DNA of 11,149 bases, taken from the IMG/VR virus record IMGVR_UViG_2923302340_000010, positions 1 through 11,149 of that record; one strand, 5' to 3'. Both the position numbers and the translations under genes were made by a program. Under the pieces are notes generated by a model. That model saw only the letters and a program-made list of their open reading frames with translations. It had not been told where the DNA came from and did not search any database. Shown here piece after piece: positions 2,042 to 9,781 of the stretch. The stretch's first letter is position 1; every line of letters starts with the position of its first letter. The DNA is from a virus. Taxonomy: Duplodnaviria > Heunggongvirae > Uroviricota > Caudoviricetes.

Positions 2042-2386
2042 TTAATTTTTGCCATCGTCATTTGTGACCGATGCACATGAGGGCATCCAGTCTTCTGAAT
2101 CCTCTGTCAGTATCACGTTTGAACGCAAGCCATGCTTCGTTTTCCGTTTCATATACTCCCTGCCGTATTCCGCCATTGCCCCTGGCATATCCTTACCGAA
2201 GCGTGTCAGTGTTACGGGCTTACCGAATCCGTGTGCCCTCATATACGCCAGATAGGCGTGATAGAGATACCTGCGCGGGCTGAACGGAATAATTTCAGCA
2301 TTACCCACTAACAGGCCATCGCACATTACCGACGACATGAGATAGCCGCAGAAGTCCACCAGCGAATCGCCCTCGCGTTTTATCAC
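2042..2386 (-). CDS. C-terminal fragment of the P4 alpha-like primase/helicase (putative origin-binding domain), split from the upstream ORF by an in-frame TAG
   Basis: Same reading frame as 2438..3841. The 17 codons between the TAG at 2438..2440 and the GTG at 2386 are open (read-through gives ...LLTRFSD*DEAKRLLYEQQKSEEALVIKREGDS...). The pattern YLYHAYLAYMRAHGFGKPVTLTRFGKDM resembles the conserved C-terminal region of P4-family primases. Weak RBS before the GTG. Confidence 0.6.
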   Translation of the reverse strand: MIKREGDSLVDFCGYLMSSVMCDGLLVGNAEIIPFSPRRYLYHAYLAYMRAHGFGKPVTLTRFGKDMPGAMAEYGREYMKRKTKHGLRSNVILTEDSEDWMPSCASVTNDDGKN

Positions 2387-2437: not shown

Positions 2438-3841
2438 CTAGTCAGAAAAGCGTGTAAGCAGGTGGCGAATCACTACCGCCAGCTCTCCTTCTATTTTTTC
2501 AGCCAGCATAGGGTCACGTTCGTTCTCCGGTACAACTTCCGAAAAATTGAATATTACCCGACGACGTGATATCCCACCGCTGCGGTCACTGAATGACATG
2601 GCGTTATTGTTCACCGCCAGCACGACCGCCTGAATGCGTGTTGAGTAGGGGGCTTTATGTTTCGGGTCGATTGCCACCTTATCACCGCCTGTAATGGCCT
2701 TAATCCCTGCACCATCACCAGCGTAACGGGTCATATCCGGCATGATAATCAGCGAAAAGCCAACCACTAACGCACGTTCCCTGGCATCTTCCAGCGCCTT
2801 CATGCTTGCCGATACCGTGTTGGCCTTACCCGCCAGCATAGTGCAAATCTCCGCCATTACGCTTTTACCGCTTCCACCCGGCCCCGTTACCTCAAGAAAT
2901 AACTGCCAGTCGTACCGATTCGCCAGCACCATGAATAACGCCGCCAGTACGCGATCTGCCTTGCGGTCATTCTCAGCCACCGAACGGCGCAACCACTTCC
3001 AGAAATTCGGCGCATGTGTTGCCAGCGTTTCCCCCTCTGCTGGTGGGCTGAAAGGTAATTCACTGGCAATTAACAACCAGTCGTTTTTGTTATGCTCCCG
3101 AAAATTACCAGTTCTGGTATCAAATACCCCGTTACTGAATCCAATCAGGTTACGGGCTGTATTCCCCATTACGGGCAAACTTAACTTCATGGTATCGACC
3201 GCCGATTTGATGGCGTTCTGCGAATAGCTGATTTCCGCATCAATAAAAATCTGCGCCATAGTCCGCTGTAACTCTTTATCCTGTACCGGCTCCCATACAA
3301 CACCGTTGTAGTGGTGAACGGTGTCAGAATCCGCATTGATTGCCAGTTCACCGCCATAATGTGCCAGGAGAACTTCGCCGCGCTGGCTGGCTCCCATCTG
3401 ATTTAGTGCTGGCCTGGGTAGGTCAATATTTTTTGTGGCTAATTTCATCGCTGAAACTTCCCCACTCTCTGCCTGTTCGCGGATCCGTTGCAGGTAGTCG
3501 CGCCAGTTTTCCGGCTCCCGGTCGGTGATACCTTTGTATAATTTCGCGTCCTGTACGCCAGCCAGTGCCAGTTTTTCAGCGATAGCATTGATCTGGATTG
3601 GTTCGATCTCCCCCGCGAGATAGACACGCGCAAAGCGGCGTTCATCGTCGACAATGCGGATATTCGCCAGGTCTGCCAGTTGCTTTGGCCCCAGGTAAAC
3701 AGGTGGTACGTTATCGCCGTGTTTTCGTCCTTCGCTTTCAATCCAGTGTTGAGCATGGGCGTAAGCATCCGTCCCGGCAAAAATGATTACCTCAGTGAAT
3801 TTATCCTTCGGCTGATATTTCAAACTCGGTGCGTTTTTCAC
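2438..3841 (-). CDS. P4 alpha-like primase/helicase (D5/P4-family P-loop NTPase), truncated by an in-frame TAG at 2438..2440
   Basis: 467-aa ORF with Walker A motif GPGGSGKS. GTG start at 3841 is preceded by GGGAGGT and overlaps the stop of the upstream gene (GTGA). Together with 2042..2386 it would make a roughly 600-aa protein. Confidence 0.85.
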   Translation of the reverse strand: MKNAPSLKYQPKDKFTEVIIFAGTDAYAHAQHWIESEGRKHGDNVPPVYLGPKQLADLANIRIVDDERRFARVYLAGEIEPIQINAIAEKLALAGVQDAKLYKGITDREPENWRDYLQRIREQAESGEVSAMKLATKNIDLPRPALNQMGASQRGEVLLAHYGGELAINADSDTVHHYNGVVWEPVQDKELQRTMAQIFIDAEISYSQNAIKSAVDTMKLSLPVMGNTARNLIGFSNGVFDTRTGNFREHNKNDWLLIASELPFSPPAEGETLATHAPNFWKWLRRSVAENDRKADRVLAALFMVLANRYDWQLFLEVTGPGGSGKSVMAEICTMLAGKANTVSASMKALEDARERALVVGFSLIIMPDMTRYAGDGAGIKAITGGDKVAIDPKHKAPYSTRIQAVVLAVNNNAMSFSDRSGGISRRRVIFNFSEVVPENERDPMLAEKIEGELAVVIRHLLTRFSD

Positions 3842-4128
3842 TTCTTACCTCCCGCAACCAACATTGCCCGGATTTTTTTAATATTCGTGGCTGCACGTCT
3901 TGCCACTGCCTGTTGTTTGTTTTCAACCAGAATAAAATCACGCTCAAACTGACGGCGCGGCATTACGCAGTCATATTCGTAAGCCTCACGGCGGTAGGTG
4001 ATATTGCCTGGCGTAACGTGACGAATAACCACTCGTCCCCCACGTCTGGTGTCGCGGTAAATATCGCCGTGTCTGATTTCAGGCCGAGCGGGGCCGCTGG
4101 CAGTAAAGCCAGAATTTTTCTTTTTCAT
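3838..4128 (-). CDS. Hypothetical basic protein (96 aa), coupled to the primase start
   Basis: ATG at 4128, TGA at 3838..3840 overlapping the primase GTG. Arg/Lys-rich; no motif recognised. Confidence 0.55.
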   Translation of the reverse strand: MKKKNSGFTASGPARPEIRHGDIYRDTRRGGRVVIRHVTPGNITYRREAYEYDCVMPRRQFERDFILVENKQQAVARRAATNIKKIRAMLVAGGKK

Positions 4129-4132
4129 GGTT

Positions 4133-4333
4133 TTATTTTCCTGTCAGCAGTTCCGGTTTTATTTCCGCACGAATACAAAGTTCAGAAAAAAATTCAGGAG
4201 AACCAACAATCTCATTACTTTTCAGTCGGCATTGTGATTTCACTTTCCCTTTATCCAGGTAAACCAGTACGCGTCCGGTGAAATCATCTGGCACACTCAG
4301 GGTAATTGTCATTGTTGCTTGCTGATTATCCAT
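4133..4333 (-). CDS. Hypothetical protein (66 aa)
   Basis: ATG at 4333 preceded by a GGGGGTGA SD; overlaps the stop of the upstream gene by 8 nt; TAA at 4133..4135. Confidence 0.5.
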   Translation of the reverse strand: MDNQQATMTITLSVPDDFTGRVLVYLDKGKVKSQCRLKSNEIVGSPEFFSELCIRAEIKPELLTGK

Positions 4334-4691
4334 GATTCACCCCCTGAATAACCTGATAACCGCAACTGGTCAGCAATTCGATAAATTCCGGCAGTGTGCC
4401 GAAACAGCAATCATCACGCATACGTTCGCGGGATACCTCAACGCCGTTTTCGTAGTGACTCACCATGCGTCCAGTAAAATGCAGATCATCATCGTGATGG
4501 CACGTTGACGGCTTAATCAGTCGCGCACGTTCTGCCAGTTCCAGCAATGCTTCAACGCTTCCGGCAATTGCACCATCCGGCAGGTGATAATTACTTACCA
4601 CGCGTCCATTCTCCACGTTGACCAGTAGCTGCCCGGAAAATATCTCGTCAAACTGAATGCTGTTAAGGTCAGAAATTGACAGGTTATGCAT
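4326..4691 (-). CDS. Hypothetical protein (121 aa)
   Basis: ATG at 4691 preceded by CAGGAGGTG at ideal spacing (the track's longer start at 4709 is less likely); 8-nt overlap (ATGCATAA) with the upstream gene's stop. Confidence 0.55.
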   Translation of the reverse strand: MHNLSISDLNSIQFDEIFSGQLLVNVENGRVVSNYHLPDGAIAGSVEALLELAERARLIKPSTCHHDDDLHFTGRMVSHYENGVEVSRERMRDDCCFGTLPEFIELLTSCGYQVIQGVNHG

Positions 4692-4908
4692 GGTGCACCT
4701 CCTGCACATCAGCCATGATAATTTTTCCGGCCTTATCCAGTGCCTGATCGGCTTTTAGCTGCACAAATGCTAAATAATGGGAGATGCATTCTGATTCTCT
4801 GGCTGCGTGTTTATGCGCCACACCAGCGATAGCAGAAATCTCAATAAGTGAATCCATCAGCGTTTTGATAGCGTCTACCGCTGCATCAGGCCATGTTGCA
4901 TTACACAT
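4684..4908 (-). CDS. Hypothetical protein (74 aa)
   Basis: ATG at 4908 preceded by CAGGAGGTGG; overlaps the stop of the upstream gene (ATGTGTAA). Confidence 0.5.
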   Translation of the reverse strand: MCNATWPDAAVDAIKTLMDSLIEISAIAGVAHKHAARESECISHYLAFVQLKADQALDKAGKIIMADVQEVHHA

Positions 4909-5266
4909 GTTCCACCTCCTGGCGAATGCGGGCAGCGAATACCATCACGCAGCCATCAGGAGATTGCTGGCGTGCTTCCTGTTCGCTGGTGGCCTCGATG
5001 TGAATTACACGCGGTTGTGCTGTGCTCAGGGCGATAAAACGCCATATAAAATTGTTTTCGCATTTCTGAATAAACAGCGTGTTTTCTTCGCGCCCTTTCC
5101 ATGTTGCCGAGATATAGCCCATATCATTGAGCATCTTGCAGGCATCCACCAGCGTATCAGCGGCTACGTGTACAGTGTTTTTACCGTCAGCCATGCAATC
5201 ACGGTGCACCGCCAGGAAGGTGTATATAAATTTAGGGTGAGTTTGGGTATGCTGTATTCCAGCCAT
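4901..5266 (-). CDS. Hypothetical protein (121 aa), first gene of the operon leading into the primase
   Basis: Internal ATG at 5266..5264 of the 384-aa track ORF, preceded by GAGGT at about 8 nt. Upstream of it the frame yields low-complexity Ser/Cys-rich sequence and overlaps the plus-strand regulator gene, so the long ORF is an artefact. Confidence 0.55.
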   Translation of the reverse strand: MAGIQHTQTHPKFIYTFLAVHRDCMADGKNTVHVAADTLVDACKMLNDMGYISATWKGREENTLFIQKCENNFIWRFIALSTAQPRVIHIEATSEQEARQQSPDGCVMVFAARIRQEVEHV

Positions 5267-5353
5267 AATCGTTACCTCATTTAACGGTTTGGTTAGAAGC
5301 CCGGTTAGTGTTCGCGCACTGCCGGGTTTCGTCGTTTTTATGAATCGCTCATT

Positions 5354-5455
5354 GTGAGATACATAGCGACCTCCATGTGAGATACACATTATATTGTGGT
5401 GATATACATTGCAAGTGTTTTTATATCTCACTTTTGTGTATAGTGATATACACAT
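5354..5455. promoter_or_regulatory. Phased operator-like repeat array GTGA(G/T)ATACA(CA)T in the divergent intergenic region
   Basis: Direct copies at 5354..5364, 5377..5389, 5399..5409 and 5443..5455, plus an inverted copy ATATCTCAC at 5423..5431, spaced about 22-23 bp apart (two helical turns). A possible extended -10 (TGTGTATAGT, about 5435..5444) faces the plus-strand gene. Confidence 0.5.
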
Positions 5456-5474
5456 AACAAATTGGTGATTAACT

Positions 5475-5777
5475 ATGTCTGTATACAAAAATGCAAAATC
5501 GCAAATGACAACGATCAGGGTTCCCCACGATGTTATGGAGGGCATGGAATCCGTAAAACTGGACGGCGAAAGCAACGCCGGATTCATAGTAACCGCCATG
5601 CGCGGTGAGATCGCTCGCCGCCAGGCAGAAGGAAGAGGAGAAAATCCCCTGGTTTCTTCGCTCGATGCACTGGCGCAGGTGGAAAAAATCGGTGTCAAAG
5701 CTGCCGAGGAGATCGGGCAACTCGTCACCGTCGCGCGTGAAGAACTCCAGCGCCGCAAGGCCAAAGAACAGGAGTAG
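5475..5777 (+). CDS. Small DNA-binding regulator, putative ribbon-helix-helix (CopG/Arc-like) repressor (100 aa)
   Basis: ATG at 5475 with GGTGA 6 nt upstream; TAG at 5775..5777. TTIRVPHDV (beta-strand), then a helix, a NAG turn and a second helix (FIVTAMRGEIARR) fit the RHH pattern; charged helical C-terminus. It is the only convincing plus-strand gene in the element and is divergent from the small-gene operon. Confidence 0.5.
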   Translation: MSVYKNAKSQMTTIRVPHDVMEGMESVKLDGESNAGFIVTAMRGEIARRQAEGRGENPLVSSLDALAQVEKIGVKAAEEIGQLVTVAREELQRRKAKEQE

Positions 5778-6047
5778 TTGATCAGCACCGGGCGACCAGA
5801 AAAAATCGCATCAGTCGCACCACCAGCAAAATTTTTTGCTTTCCGGACAGCGTGACCAACGACATTTTGCAGCAAAATATTCTGCATTTCTGGCGTGCTG
5901 TAGTAACGGTGATCAGCGCCTTCACTCTGTGCGACCACAACGCTATAATCTGCCTCGTAGACAGTAAGCAATATGGCGCAGTAGGCTATTCGTTCACAAA
6001 GGCGCTCCGGCAACGGGGCGCTTTCTCTTTTTGTAACGGTCAGAGCG

Positions 6048-6896
6048 TTACACATGGCTGTTTTCCTCCATGCGGCGGGCTAACCAACGCTGCGAAAGAC
6101 GAATTAATTCAGCTTTCCGCTGGTGGTAGTCCTGGCCTAACTCAATCAGCGTGATATTGCTCTGCTCAAGGTAAGAAAGGTGCTCAAGCTGCAACGTGCT
6201 CATGTGGTCGCGTGGTTCGCCTGTGATGCCGTTCGCCAGTGCCCACTGTTTTGCAGTCATGCCACCCAGCACGATACGCGCCAGCATATTGGCTTCCGTG
6301 GTGTAGTGGTGCTGGAACGTGCTTTTACCCAGTTCAGCCCGGTACGCCTCCAGCGCGGCGCACATCGGCTTAAAGTAGCTGGCAACGGTGATACGGGCTT
6401 TCAGTTCCCGGCGTAACGCTGCGGAACGCACTGGCGCCACCTTGTGTAGATCCTCCTCGCATTTGATGAAATACTGGCGAACGGCGCGGCCTTGTTCGGT
6501 GCGTTCGACCATCGCCAGTTCTTTCGCCATGTTCGTGGAGATCAAATAGTCTTCACTGCGGCGATCACCGCCGCGCTTTGTTGTCCAATCAGAATCAAAC
6601 TGTTCAATATTTACACTTTGGTTCCCCCGTTTCGGGGAATCAAAGTACAAATTTTCTACAACTTCAAAATCCACGCCATTTTTAAATCCGTACTCATCAA
6701 TACGTCCTTTAATCCAGGTAGTGAAATCACGGCCTACCCCGAGCGCCTTATACAACGCTCTGGCGCTAACAATATTGGTTTCACGCCCGCCAATAACGCC
6801 GGAAATAACCGGGATAATTTCGCCAAAATTTTGCAGATTCTGGTTTTCAGGCCGAACGAAGCCCTGCCCCTGTACGGGCGTTTTTGGAAATTTCAT
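6048..6896 (-). CDS. Phage antirepressor-like protein with N-terminal AntA/Bro-N-type domain (282 aa)
   Basis: ATG at 6896 preceded by AGGAG; TAA at 6048..6050. ALYKALGVGRDFTTWIKGRIDEYGF and NMAKELAMVERTEQGRAVRQYFIKCEE match the conserved blocks of phage Ant/Bro-N antirepressor N-domains as I recall them. Confidence 0.7.
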   Translation of the reverse strand: MKFPKTPVQGQGFVRPENQNLQNFGEIIPVISGVIGGRETNIVSARALYKALGVGRDFTTWIKGRIDEYGFKNGVDFEVVENLYFDSPKRGNQSVNIEQFDSDWTTKRGGDRRSEDYLISTNMAKELAMVERTEQGRAVRQYFIKCEEDLHKVAPVRSAALRRELKARITVASYFKPMCAALEAYRAELGKSTFQHHYTTEANMLARIVLGGMTAKQWALANGITGEPRDHMSTLQLEHLSYLEQSNITLIELGQDYHQRKAELIRLSQRWLARRMEENSHV

Positions 6897-8196: not shown

Positions 8197-8324
8197 ACGC
8201 ACACCTCAGCGTCCTCTACTGTAGTGGCTGTACCAGTCCGTCGAGGTGTACGGATTTTCGGGAGCGACCCTAGACACAGCCTTTTCTTTCGTCGCTCAAA
8301 GTCTACTACTGTATACTCAACCAG

Positions 8325-9539
8325 TCACCCGCATTTTCCGAACTCACCATGCACCACATTTCCGCCATGCTCGAGCGAATCCATATAGTCGGCATACCAC
8401 TGGAGCATCTCCCGGCGACCATCCAGATATTGCGCATGGTTGTATGTGCCACGAATTGAGTTTTTATCGACGTGTGCAAGCTGTGTCTCTATCCACGCGG
8501 TGTTATAGCCCTGCTCATGCAAAATGGTGCTCATGGTGTGCCGGAATCCATGACCAGTAACCTTTCCGTTATAGCCGATGCGTTTAAATACTTGGTTTAT
8601 GCTAGCCTCGCTCATTGTTTTCCTTGGATCATTACGGCCGGGAAACATAAGCGGATAATTGCCAGTTAATTCTTTAATCTGCCCAATAAGCGAAAGAGCC
8701 TGCTTAGACAAAGGCACCACATGAGGGCGACGCATTTTCATCCGTGAAGCAGGTATCTCCCAGATAGCCTTGTTGAGATCGATTTCATCCCATAATGCAC
8801 CGCGCAGTTCGCCAGTCCGCAAACCGGTGATAATCAGTAGACGAGCCGCCATAACAACCAATGCACTTCCTGAGTAACTGGACAATGCCTTGAAAAAATC
8901 AGGTAATTCTTTGGCTGTGAGGAAAGGATAATGATTAGATTCATGACCTTGCATCGCGCTGGTGAGATCCGGTGCAGGGTTATACTCAGCACGTCCAGTG
9001 ACAATTGCATAGCGGAAAACCTCCCCGCATCGCTGCCTCACTTTTTTGGCTTTTTCGGTAGCACCGCGCCCCTCGATGCGCCGCAGCACATTCAGCAGTT
9101 CAAGTGGTTTGATTTCGGCGATTGGTTTTTTGCCAATGTAAGGGAACACATCTTTGTTGAAGGCTTCGAGGATGTCTGAAGCATAACCAGCAGACCATTT
9201 TTTTAATTTGCTGCTGTGCCACTCAAGGGCAATATCTTTGAAGGTGTTGTTTAACTGCGTTTCCCGGGCAATCTTTTCCTCTCGTTTCGCTTCCATCGGA
9301 TCGATACCCCCAGCGATACCCCTTTTAGCTTCTTCACGTTTTGCACGAGCATCAGCCAAGGTAACTTCAGGATACACACCTAGTGCTAACAGCTTCTCTT
9401 TACCAGCTACACGATACTTGAAGCGCCAATATTTTCCTCCACTAGGTTTTACCAAGAGATACAGACCGCCACCATCAGCCAGCTTGTAAGCCTTCTCTTT
9501 TGGCTTGGCAGTGTCTATTTGACGGGCATTGAGTTTCAC
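8325..9539 (-). CDS. int: P4-type tyrosine site-specific integrase (404 aa)
   Basis: N-terminal arm-binding-type region (LNARQIDTAKPKEK...GGLYLLVKPSGGKYWRFKYR), catalytic R in GLRTGELRG, H-x-x-R in HGFRHT, and a C-terminal Tyr in RGTYNH. GTG start at 9539 preceded by GGAGGT. Lies directly beside the tRNA 3' end. Confidence 0.95.
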   Translation of the reverse strand: MKLNARQIDTAKPKEKAYKLADGGGLYLLVKPSGGKYWRFKYRVAGKEKLLALGVYPEVTLADARAKREEAKRGIAGGIDPMEAKREEKIARETQLNNTFKDIALEWHSSKLKKWSAGYASDILEAFNKDVFPYIGKKPIAEIKPLELLNVLRRIEGRGATEKAKKVRQRCGEVFRYAIVTGRAEYNPAPDLTSAMQGHESNHYPFLTAKELPDFFKALSSYSGSALVVMAARLLIITGLRTGELRGALWDEIDLNKAIWEIPASRMKMRRPHVVPLSKQALSLIGQIKELTGNYPLMFPGRNDPRKTMSEASINQVFKRIGYNGKVTGHGFRHTMSTILHEQGYNTAWIETQLAHVDKNSIRGTYNHAQYLDGRREMLQWYADYMDSLEHGGNVVHGEFGKCG

Positions 9540-9705: not shown

Positions 9706-9781
9706 TGGTGCCGATAATAGGAGTCGAACCTACGACCTTCGCATTACGAATGCGCTGCTCTACCAACTGAGCTATATCGGC
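9706..9781 (-). tRNA. thrW: tRNA-Thr (anticodon CGU)
   Basis: The reverse complement reads GCCGATATAGCTCAGTTGGTAGAGCAGCGCATTCGTAATGCGAAGGTCGTAGGTTCGACTCCTATTATCGGCACCA: 76 nt, cloverleaf-compatible, anticodon loop TTCGTAA, encoded CCA. Position downstream of proA matches the E. coli proA-thrW arrangement. Confidence 0.95.

Follow-up and report, generated by a model that had tools for sequence, protein, structure and literature searches.

The window analysed here is an 11,149-nt stretch of viral DNA (IMG/VR record IMGVR_UViG_2923302340_000010) that carries five small open reading frames ahead of a replicase gene, which raises the question of what these genes are and how they are controlled. 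The original prediction held that they are real, co-translated genes of 121, 74, 121, 66 and 96 codons feeding into the primase, in a layout like that of the P4 left operon. We find that all five are genuine genes and that they make up the first part of the replication operon in an E. coli phage satellite island. More specifically, we regard it as moderately probable that they open the early (replication) operon of a PICI-type satellite located at tRNA-Thr(CGU) next to proA, whose leader gene is gated by an RNA.

All genes of the operon lie on the minus strand and are arranged head to tail: ORF1 (5266..4901, 121 aa), a Kil/Icd-like leader gene; the accessory cassettes ORF2 (4908..4684, 74 aa), ORF3 (4691..4326, 121 aa) and ORF4 (4333..4133, 66 aa); ORF5 (4128..3838, 96 aa), a DUF4222 gene; and the replicase gene (3841..2438). 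The overlaps along this chain are ATGTGTAA, ATGCATAA, ATGGATAA and, where ORF5 is start-stop coupled to the replicase, GTGA. As read from the sequence and recomputed, the ORF1/ORF2 (GGAGGTGgaacATGTGTAA), ORF2/ORF3 (GGAGGTGcaccATGCATAA) and ORF3/ORF4 (GGGGGTGaatcATGGATAA) junctions each overlap by 8 nt, while the overlap at the ORF5/replicase junction (GGGAGGTaagaaGTGA) is 4 nt, which bears out the proposed feed into the primase. The sole non-overlapping junction is ORF4/ORF5 (AGGAAAATAAaaccATG), with a 4-nt gap and a weak Shine-Dalgarno sequence (SD) for ORF5, so that the predicted pattern of an SD and a 4-8 nt overlap holds at four junctions and fails at this one. The SD of each downstream gene sits within the preceding gene, and ORF1 has its own (GAGGT, 7 nt upstream of its ATG). 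A sequence scan of 3838-5266 found no terminator-like sites on the minus strand. Since start codons lie in or beside the previous stop and the SDs inside the previous gene, ribosomes are expected to be handed from ORF1 through ORF2, ORF3, ORF4 and ORF5 to the replicase.

The same gene chain and junction grammar recur in 70 independent loci, so the arrangement is more than chance and is conserved in related elements. Among 101 distinct junction sequences, 42 have an 8-nt overlap, 25 a 4-nt overlap and 88 an SD-like motif. The dN/dS values are 0.18 for ORF1, 0.22 for ORF3, 0.32 for ORF5 and 0.49 for ORF4; the value for ORF2 (0.78) comes from 12 variable sites only, too few substitutions in the sample. 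Recurrence, dN/dS and junctions together uphold the five frames as co-translated genes. For ORF1, the 121-aa start is the one chosen by most gene callers. A 384-codon open frame reaching upstream of it (4901..6055) was rejected as a gene, since changes in the region above 5266 follow the pattern of an RNA hairpin and a promoter.

By gene content, the island next to proA, at tRNA-Thr, is a satellite of the PICI type and not of the P4 type. The island contains int, alpA, antA, replicase, ProQ/FinO and PerC genes. The tyrosine integrase gene int (9539..8325) stands at one end of the island, followed by tRNA-Thr(CGU) (9706-9781) and then proA, and alpA (PF05930) is on the same strand as the D5_N/DUF5906 replicase. 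No phage structural or lysis genes are present in the 9.5 kb of island within the window, the far island end lying outside it. These features (int, alpA, replicase, PerC, a tRNA or proA site, no structural genes in view) resemble those of the Gram-negative PICIs EcCICFT073 and EcCIMP1. EcCIMP1 in particular adjoins proA, has the layout of the present island and is mobilised by a helper (PMC11773190). By analogy, the present island may also undergo helper-driven induction, excision and packaging. In the accessible text of the two papers, the small genes that separate alpA from the replicase are labelled 'hypothetical', and no antisense RNA or divergent regulator of the YlcI type is mentioned. 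About 1,070 of 5,426 complete E. coli genomes, roughly one fifth, contain DNA that matches the module, yet its control has so far gone undescribed. As for the search itself, a species-level genome scan with ORF1 returned 4 loci only; scanning viral contigs for the leader motif was much more fruitful. In tblastn searches of 50,697 phage records with ORF1, ORF3 and ORF5, the only match was a weak one to ORF1, in a capsid-bearing satellite.

None of the five proteins had been recognised in the original prediction, a view that profile searches overturn for ORF1 and ORF5; 'unassigned' remains apt for the functions of ORF2-ORF5. Residues 73-116 of ORF1 match the Icd-like model NF033153 (NCBIfam; 81 bits, E = 4.7e-23), which describes a C-terminal domain of about 48 aa and has a curated cut-off of 25 bits. 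P4 Kil matches the same domain (73.9 bits, E = 7.8e-21). On these matches, ORF1 is a relative of the growth inhibitors P4 Kil and P1 Icd. The N-terminal half of ORF1 also gives a weak Icd-like match (E = 0.042) and a BLASTP match to the N-terminus of P4 Kil (E = 3e-4). In an AF2 model (pLDDT 70), the protein apparently consists of two beta-beta-alpha-beta units in tandem; support for an origin by tandem duplication is no more than moderate (E = 0.042 and 0.057). Expression of P1 Icd or P4 Kil inhibits cell division or kills the cell; the P4 case is also summarised in PMC10111431. By analogy with these two proteins, and with an allele 84% identical to ORF1 that has other middle genes (see below), ORF1 is probably toxic, and interference with the host or a helper is plausible.

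Behind this leader, the module behaves as a cassette array: the Icd-like gene is first in 70/70 chains, the last small gene in most loci is DUF4222 or a 122-aa alternative, and the middle positions are filled from about 15 families or more. ORF2, a helical-looking protein whose presence varies by locus, belongs to a small helical family (phrog_5146, E = 1.7e-48); its relatives keep its length at 39-59% identity, and it is missing as a precise cassette in loci L009-L018. ORF3 and ORF4 (E = 2.5e-17) both fall in phrog_340, and by BLASTP ORF4 and the N-terminal part of ORF3 are paralogues (43% identity, E = 6e-8). The ORF3 family is limited to E. coli and Salmonella. Such precise junctions account for the shuffling of small accessory genes from one satellite to another, and ORF2-ORF4 with their alternatives may be a reservoir of candidate proteins directed against host or helper. 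ORF5 is a DUF4222 protein (Pfam PF13973, 69.8 bits vs. a gathering threshold of 27) predicted to fold as a Tudor/SH3-like barrel plus a helix; its matches among viral structures are only to uncharacterised small barrels. A sequence search of PDB chains gave nothing meaningful for any of the five proteins. The replicase combines a shared N-terminal domain with D5_N and a DUF5906 helicase (Pfam, PHROG). It is ended early by an in-frame TAG that replaces a CAG of the intact 601-aa gene of locus L001, and the remainder (2042..2386, minus strand) encodes the Pox_D5 C-terminal domain (PF03288; phrog_864 positions 542-670). Because of this amber codon, the present copy of the satellite may be decaying.

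Upstream of ORF1 lies a candidate sigma-70 promoter for the operon (5386..5414, minus strand; -35 TTGCAA at 5414..5409, a 17-nt spacer, -10 TAATGT at 5391..5386). A promoter consensus scan made no call there; in upstream regions that have otherwise diverged, its TTG and TA...T positions are retained. Five operator-like copies of GTGAKATACA (5354..5452) lie around and downstream of this promoter, out of six matches in the window, against a chance expectation of 0.91; six were reached in 0/200 shuffles. A divergent gene of the YlcI/YnfO family (5475..5777, plus strand; NF041551, E = 5.4e-20), which has a weak Pfam match of the ribbon-helix-helix type, is found at -209 from ORF1 in 43/64 loci, and the repeat sequence varies with its allele. 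Its product is a candidate repressor of the operon promoter.

The opposite strand at the start of ORF1 appears to encode a conserved, structured and previously unannotated RNA of about 80 nt (5261..5340, plus strand, ends predicted), which covers the ORF1 SD and start codon. Its first stem-loop presents the anti-SD CCUCAUU in the loop; the second, a GC-rich hairpin, is followed by a U-rich tail with an interrupted U-tract (UUUCGUCGUUUUU). The MFE is -33.8 kcal/mol (z = -5.9) for the antisense strand and -19.3 (z = -1.8) for the sense strand. The same strand is favoured by the pairing itself: 97.5% of the paired cells can pair when read as antisense vs. 83.8% as sense, and the antisense reading contains 119 G-U cells vs. 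1 A-C cell. Compensatory changes occur in 14/27 pairs, in both helices, among 40 distinct sequences, and the observed values were reached in 0/500 shuffles. The covariance model also finds the RNA in islands of Xenorhabdus, Pectobacterium and Klebsiella; the literature searched yielded no match to the leader or RNA sequences. A candidate -10 element (TATGCT, 5248..5253, plus strand) lies inside ORF1 codons 5-7. In 32/32 distinct sequences its T, A and final T are invariant, whereas variation is seen in the middle bases (TATGCT, TAAGCT, TAGACT, TATCAT) and in the encoded residues. The -35 is poor, and the promoter consensus scan made no call here.

Small RNAs that mask a leader gene have precedents. 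In P1 immI, an Icd-family leader ORF has its ribosome-binding site masked by c4 RNA, and the downstream genes depend on translation of the leader. The c4-icd-ant arrangement shares with ours this masked Icd-family leader; it differs in that c4, a same-strand transcript, acts on downstream sites, and in that icd precedes an antirepressor instead of a cassette array and replicase. The best Rfam match of our RNA is SymR (RF01809; 35.7 bits, E = 9e-4, below the gathering score of 61). SymR, about 77 nt long, is likewise an antisense RNA with two hairpins that originates inside the 5' end of its target gene and spans the SD and start codon; here the target would be the first gene of a six-gene operon, and Pfam and NCBIfam scans gave no SymE-family match for ORF1. 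RNA control of the first gene of the P4 left operon was reportedly described by Forti et al. in 1999. The CI RNA of P4 controls translation of that gene (PMC10111431).

By analogy with c4 in P1 and CI in P4, we infer that the antisense RNA gates translation of the whole coupled operon. The sigma-70 promoter, flanked by its operator repeats, would probably be held off by the divergent YlcI/YnfO-family protein. Transcripts would carry a leader of about 110 nt, and translation would have to enter at ORF1. In the silent state, constitutive antisense RNA would pair over the SD and start codon of ORF1 and block its translation, and coupling together with Rho polarity would spread this block to the whole operon, following the logic of P1 c4-icd-ant and P4 CI-kil/eta with a cis-antisense RNA in the regulatory role. 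Once a helper or incoming phage induces the operon, sense transcription would outrun the antisense RNA; ORF1 would then arrest growth or division, the variable ORF2-ORF4 would act on host or helper, and ORF5, a constant companion of the replicase N-terminal domain, would be made beside the replicase.

A related locus has been studied from a different angle. A six-gene prophage locus of ECOR61 inhibits growth upon expression of phage orf24; suppressing transposon insertions fell in an Icd-like gene and the two small ORFs behind it, the effect was reconstituted, in 'muted' form, only with all six linked genes, primase included, and it was gone after removal of the Icd-like gene, the likely effector (Silas et al., preprint, doi 10.1101/2023.04.06.535777). 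The first gene lengths (366, 186 and 192 nt) and overlaps (8 and 1 nt) are those of the L036/L090 allele in our set, whose ORF1 is 84% identical to that of the window; this link rests on coordinates and annotation. Both operons join a 121-aa Icd-like gene, small coupled ORFs, DUF4222 and a primase. In the ECOR61 type, however, the middle genes (61, 63 and 73 aa vs. 74, 121 and 66 aa) are of other families, and DUF4222 and the replicase are 56% and 46% identical to those of the window.

The ECOR61 work raises the possibility that the operon is primarily an anti-phage abortive-infection or superinfection-exclusion system, in which the small proteins would detect a phage protein and set the Icd-like effector free, with the replicase as part of the system. 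This is how the preprint describes its allele (doi 10.1101/2023.04.06.535777), and the need for all six genes, the suppressors in three small genes and middle cassettes that would suit diversifying sensors are in line with it. We nevertheless consider it unlikely for the present operon. None of ten proteins searched against PADLOC-DB 2.0 (the five, the replicase and four neighbours in the window) has a match at E <= 0.01, a full satellite backbone (int, alpA, replicase, sometimes capsid genes) always surrounds the operon, and EcCIMP1, alike in layout, is mobilised by a helper (PMC11773190). Over-replication of EcCICFT073 alone harms growth (PMC6092414), so the ECOR61 phenotype could reflect runaway satellite replication instead of a dedicated effector. 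Read as an RNA-gated satellite operon, the locus would join P4 kil, P1 icd and ECOR61 in one framework, in which an RNA-gated toxic leader gene licenses a coupled operon across P1, P4 and PICI-type satellites.

It is also improbable, and slightly more so, that the small proteins are ordinary replication accessories (for origin binding, helicase loading or excision) with no role against host or helper, and that the hairpin merely insulates divergent promoters. DUF4222 fits such a role, as it is coupled to the replicase and, in replicases of three types, goes together with the N-terminal domain that they share. The Tudor/SH3-like fold is frequent in helicase partners, e.g. in UvrD, PcrA and RecD2 domains, which would suit it as well. 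ORF2-ORF4, in contrast, are dispensable, the middle cassettes differing between otherwise near-identical islands, and the ORF1 family is named for growth inhibition. Insulation alone needs neither an anti-SD in the loop nor covariation specific to the antisense strand.

The proposed likeness to the P4 left operon (kil/eta - epsilon - orf151 - cnr - alpha) holds down to the junctions: a Kil/Icd-like gene comes first, small genes follow with 8-nt ATGNNTRA overlaps, as at kil/epsilon (GTGCGTAA) and epsilon/orf151 (ATGTTTGA), and a replicase ends the series. The differences are that ORF1 is about twice the length of Kil, that the backbone is of the PICI type and that the regulatory RNA proposed here is a cis-antisense transcript in place of CI RNA. 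An orthologous relation of the five ORFs to the characterised P4 early genes (kil/eta, epsilon, orf151, cnr), in an island of the P4 type, is very improbable: the Icd-like domain shared with Kil, the same succession of genes up to the primase and the overlaps of 8 nt speak for it, but only ORF1 is related, ORF2-ORF5 having no BLASTP match to epsilon, orf151 or cnr (E <= 0.1) and falling in different PHROG families, which refutes it for those four, and the window contains neither an Rfam C4/CI match (E <= 1) nor sid, delta or psu, nor does the antisense covariance model match P4.

Within the RNA-gated operon, the RNA itself offers a cheap-to-test handle on the silencing of Gram-negative PICIs, a question left open by the founding PICI paper. 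FinOP-like pairing with the ProQ/FinO protein of the island would be at best optional, since ProQ/FinO lies beside the RNA in only 18/38 loci with enough flank and is thus not an obligatory partner. A bolder and rather doubtful extension is that the RNA is the immunity determinant of this large satellite family, replacing c4/CI, and that orphan copies act in trans, silencing a resident satellite as a phage counter-measure. Such orphan copies occur in lambdoid phages and in other islands; in mEp460 the hairpins and leader are present together with only 14 ORF1 codons.

The five small genes lie on the minus strand and lead directly into the replicase gene (3841..2438): ORF1 (5266..4901, 121 aa), ORF2 (4908..4684, 74 aa), ORF3 (4691..4326, 121 aa), ORF4 (4333..4133, 66 aa) and ORF5 (4128..3838, 96 aa). 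No terminator-like site is found on the minus strand within the block. The ORF1/2 (GGAGGTGgaacATGTGTAA), ORF2/3 (GGAGGTGcaccATGCATAA) and ORF3/4 (GGGGGTGaatcATGGATAA) junctions are 8-nt overlaps, and ORF5 overlaps the replicase gene by 4 nt (GGGAGGTaagaaGTGA). The overlaps with strong Shine-Dalgarno (SD) sequences originally predicted for every junction are present at these four, the exception being ORF4/5 (TAAaaccATG), which has a 4-nt gap and a weak SD. Purifying selection acts on ORF1, ORF3, ORF5 and ORF4 (dN/dS of 0.18, 0.22, 0.32 and 0.49, respectively). ORF2 varies too little in the sample for a dN/dS verdict; its relatives are of equal length, share 39-59% identity and retain the helical pattern. 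Coordinates, junctions and the dN/dS values of four ORFs confirm an operon of five small genes feeding into the replicase.

The original prediction recognised no family in this block, which is now better defined, with a Kil/Icd-like leader (ORF1) and a DUF4222 tail (ORF5). ORF3 and ORF4 are paralogous (43% identity, E = 6e-8) and both belong to PHROG 340, the ORF3 family being found in E. coli and Salmonella only, while ORF2 is assigned to PHROG 5146. A PDB sequence search returned no relative of any of ORF1-ORF5, and tblastn of ORF1, ORF3 and ORF5 against deposited phage genomes gave a single match, a hit of ORF1 in a satellite. In complete E. coli genomes, RefSeq labels the module genes ‘Icd-like’, ‘DUF4222’ or ‘hypothetical’. 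The ORF1 frame (4901-6055, minus strand) extends 263 codons beyond the real start without meeting a stop, spanning leader, candidate promoter and the ylcI gene of the other strand; the ‘Icd-like’ database entries of 184-212 aa therefore look like mis-called start codons.

The gene order is proA, tRNA-Thr(CGU), integrase, a 267-aa ORF, alpA, antA, the divergent YlcI/YnfO gene, the five ORFs, the D5_N/DUF5906 replicase and, downstream of it on the minus strand, a ProQ/FinO-family gene (282-812) and a PerC-family gene (1-285). Judged from this order, the layout is that of Gram-negative PICIs. EcCIMP1, which is mobilised by a helper phage, also adjoins proA (PMC11773190; PMC6092414). Module DNA is matched in 1,071 of 5,426 complete E. 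coli genomes, and the operon is a widespread PICI early operon.

ORF chains built for 70 loci with related elements reveal a new feature, a cassette grammar. The Icd-like gene heads all 70 chains, and the last small gene, start-stop coupled to the replicase, is in most of them either DUF4222 or an unrelated 122-aa protein (MISNVKFNDLEKRLD...) that occupies the same slot (L039, L040, L042, L058, L061 and others). The middle genes comprise about 15 families or more, gained and lost as precise cassettes; the commonest chain has six small genes, the additional one (77 aa) lying between ORF3 and ORF4, and the window's own combination occurs only once in the sample. An 8-nt ATGNNTRA overlap is seen at 42 of 101 distinct junctions and a 4-nt overlap at 25; an SD-like motif is present at 88. 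As read from the sequences, the C-terminal ‘...EVxHx’ of each small protein is the in-frame translation of the SD and start codon that serve the gene after it.

One allele of this operon has probably been studied already. In E. coli ECOR61, a ‘prophage’ locus is reported in a preprint to inhibit growth upon expression of the phage accessory protein orf24, and transposon suppressors map to three consecutive ORFs, an Icd-like one of 366 nt followed by two of 186 and 192 nt, which overlap by 8 and 1 nt (doi 10.1101/2023.04.06.535777). These gene lengths and overlaps equal those of an allele (121-61-63-73-99-583 aa) found at L036 and L090 and in 127 complete genomes, whose identity to the window is 84% for ORF1, 56% for DUF4222 and 46% for the replicase. 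Since the comparison used coordinates and annotation rather than ECOR61 sequence, we infer that the loci correspond, and with them that the window carries one allele of a locus already tied to growth arrest upon a phage trigger. The preprint's own reading is a dedicated abortive-infection system, a rival to the PICI early operon; a PADLOC search gave no match for any of ORF1-ORF5. A second rival holds that the small proteins are plain replication accessories. The ECOR61 effect was reconstituted only with all six linked genes, primase included, and was abolished without the Icd-like gene (doi 10.1101/2023.04.06.535777). Orthology of all five genes to P4 early genes is rejected for ORF2-ORF5, to which epsilon, orf151 and cnr are unrelated. 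The originally proposed P4 analogy therefore holds for layout and ORF1 only: the 65-aa kil frame of P4 (X51522) has the Icd-like domain of ORF1 (E = 7.8e-21), and its kil/epsilon and epsilon/orf151 junctions are 8-nt overlaps, as in the ORF1-ORF4 block.

The start of ORF1 also appears to be gated by a new cis-antisense RNA, with a predicted repressor role. The putative RNA (5261-5340, plus strand) forms two stem-loops followed by UUUCGUCGUUUUU, the first having a loop, CCUCAUU, complementary to the ORF1 SD. The GC-rich hairpin upstream of ORF1 varies by compensatory substitutions among loci, and almost no variation is seen between it and the start codon. Several observations point to a functional RNA on this strand. 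The minimum free energy of the antisense strand is -33.8 kcal/mol (z = -5.9), that of the sense strand -19.3 (z = -1.8). In 32 distinct sequences, the antisense reading pairs 97.5% of cells and the sense reading 83.8%, with 119 G-U cells vs. 1 A-C cell. Double changes occur in 14 of 27 pairs among 40 distinct sequences, and 0 of 500 shuffles reach the observed values, figures flattered by the fitting of that alignment to the covariance model; the G-U asymmetry and hand-checked changes are independent of the fit. In a -10-like TATGCT (5248-5253), part of a putative promoter, the T, A and final T are kept in 32/32 sequences, and the middle bases and encoded ORF1 residues vary. The covariance model matches Xenorhabdus, Pectobacterium and Klebsiella islands and phage mEp460, with no match in P4. 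The sole Rfam match is SymR, below threshold; none of the sampled genomes has an RNA annotated here in RefSeq, and the sequence does not occur in the literature searched. Pending transcript evidence, the operon would belong with the P1/P4 type of RNA-controlled leader-gene operons.

Orphan copies with both hairpins and the leader occur in lambdoid phage mEp460 (L003, 2516-2644), where only the first 14 codons of ORF1 remain, and in another island (L095, 3489-3598); such copies might influence satellites in trans. Weaker second matches (57-59 bits) lie at L021 9662-9768 and L095 2745-2850, the latter overlapping the 5′ end of an annotated ash family protein pseudogene, so the RNA family may extend to further branches of Icd-like genes. 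Of the 38 loci whose flanks are long enough, 18 have a ProQ gene together with the element; a FinO-FinP-like partnership is therefore possible, and not obligatory.

The candidate operon promoter (-35 TTGCAA, 5414..5409; -10 TAATGT, 5391..5386; minus strand) is surrounded by five GTGAKATACA repeats (5354-5452), and the divergent YlcI/YnfO gene (5475-5777, opposite strand) shows weak ribbon-helix-helix similarity. Loci with another YlcI/YnfO allele also have another version of the repeat, which together suggests that the product of this gene is a candidate repressor. It would then supply a function said in the PICI literature to be missing in Gram-negative elements. In the proposed mechanism, the YlcI/YnfO protein would repress the promoter through the repeats and the antisense RNA would mask the ORF1 SD and start; because each later gene would depend on ribosomes coming from the preceding one, masking this single site could silence the operon. 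Upon induction, ORF1 would slow growth or division, the cassette proteins would act on host or helper, and the replicase would amplify the island. Of this scheme, the analysis shows the genes, the coupled layout, the protein families, the exchange of cassettes and the fold of the RNA, and the two promoters, the repression, the toxicity and the parts played by ORF2-ORF5 are proposals.

The replicase frame is broken by a single in-frame TAG (2438-2440, minus strand), which is CAG in the intact 601-aa relative, and its remainder forms a 114-aa ORF (2042-2386, minus strand); this copy of the island may therefore be unable to replicate. Three unrelated replicase types, D5_N/DUF5906, DUF927 and AAA_25 RepA-like (the window, L002, L009, L012 and others), have in common their N-terminal 125 aa or so, a domain (MKNAPSLKYQ...; 3462-3841, minus strand) that travels with DUF4222 and always comes after it. 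Just downstream of the integrase gene lies an Rfam int-alpA RNA motif (8213-8280, minus strand), scoring 45.5 bits against a gathering score of 35.8.
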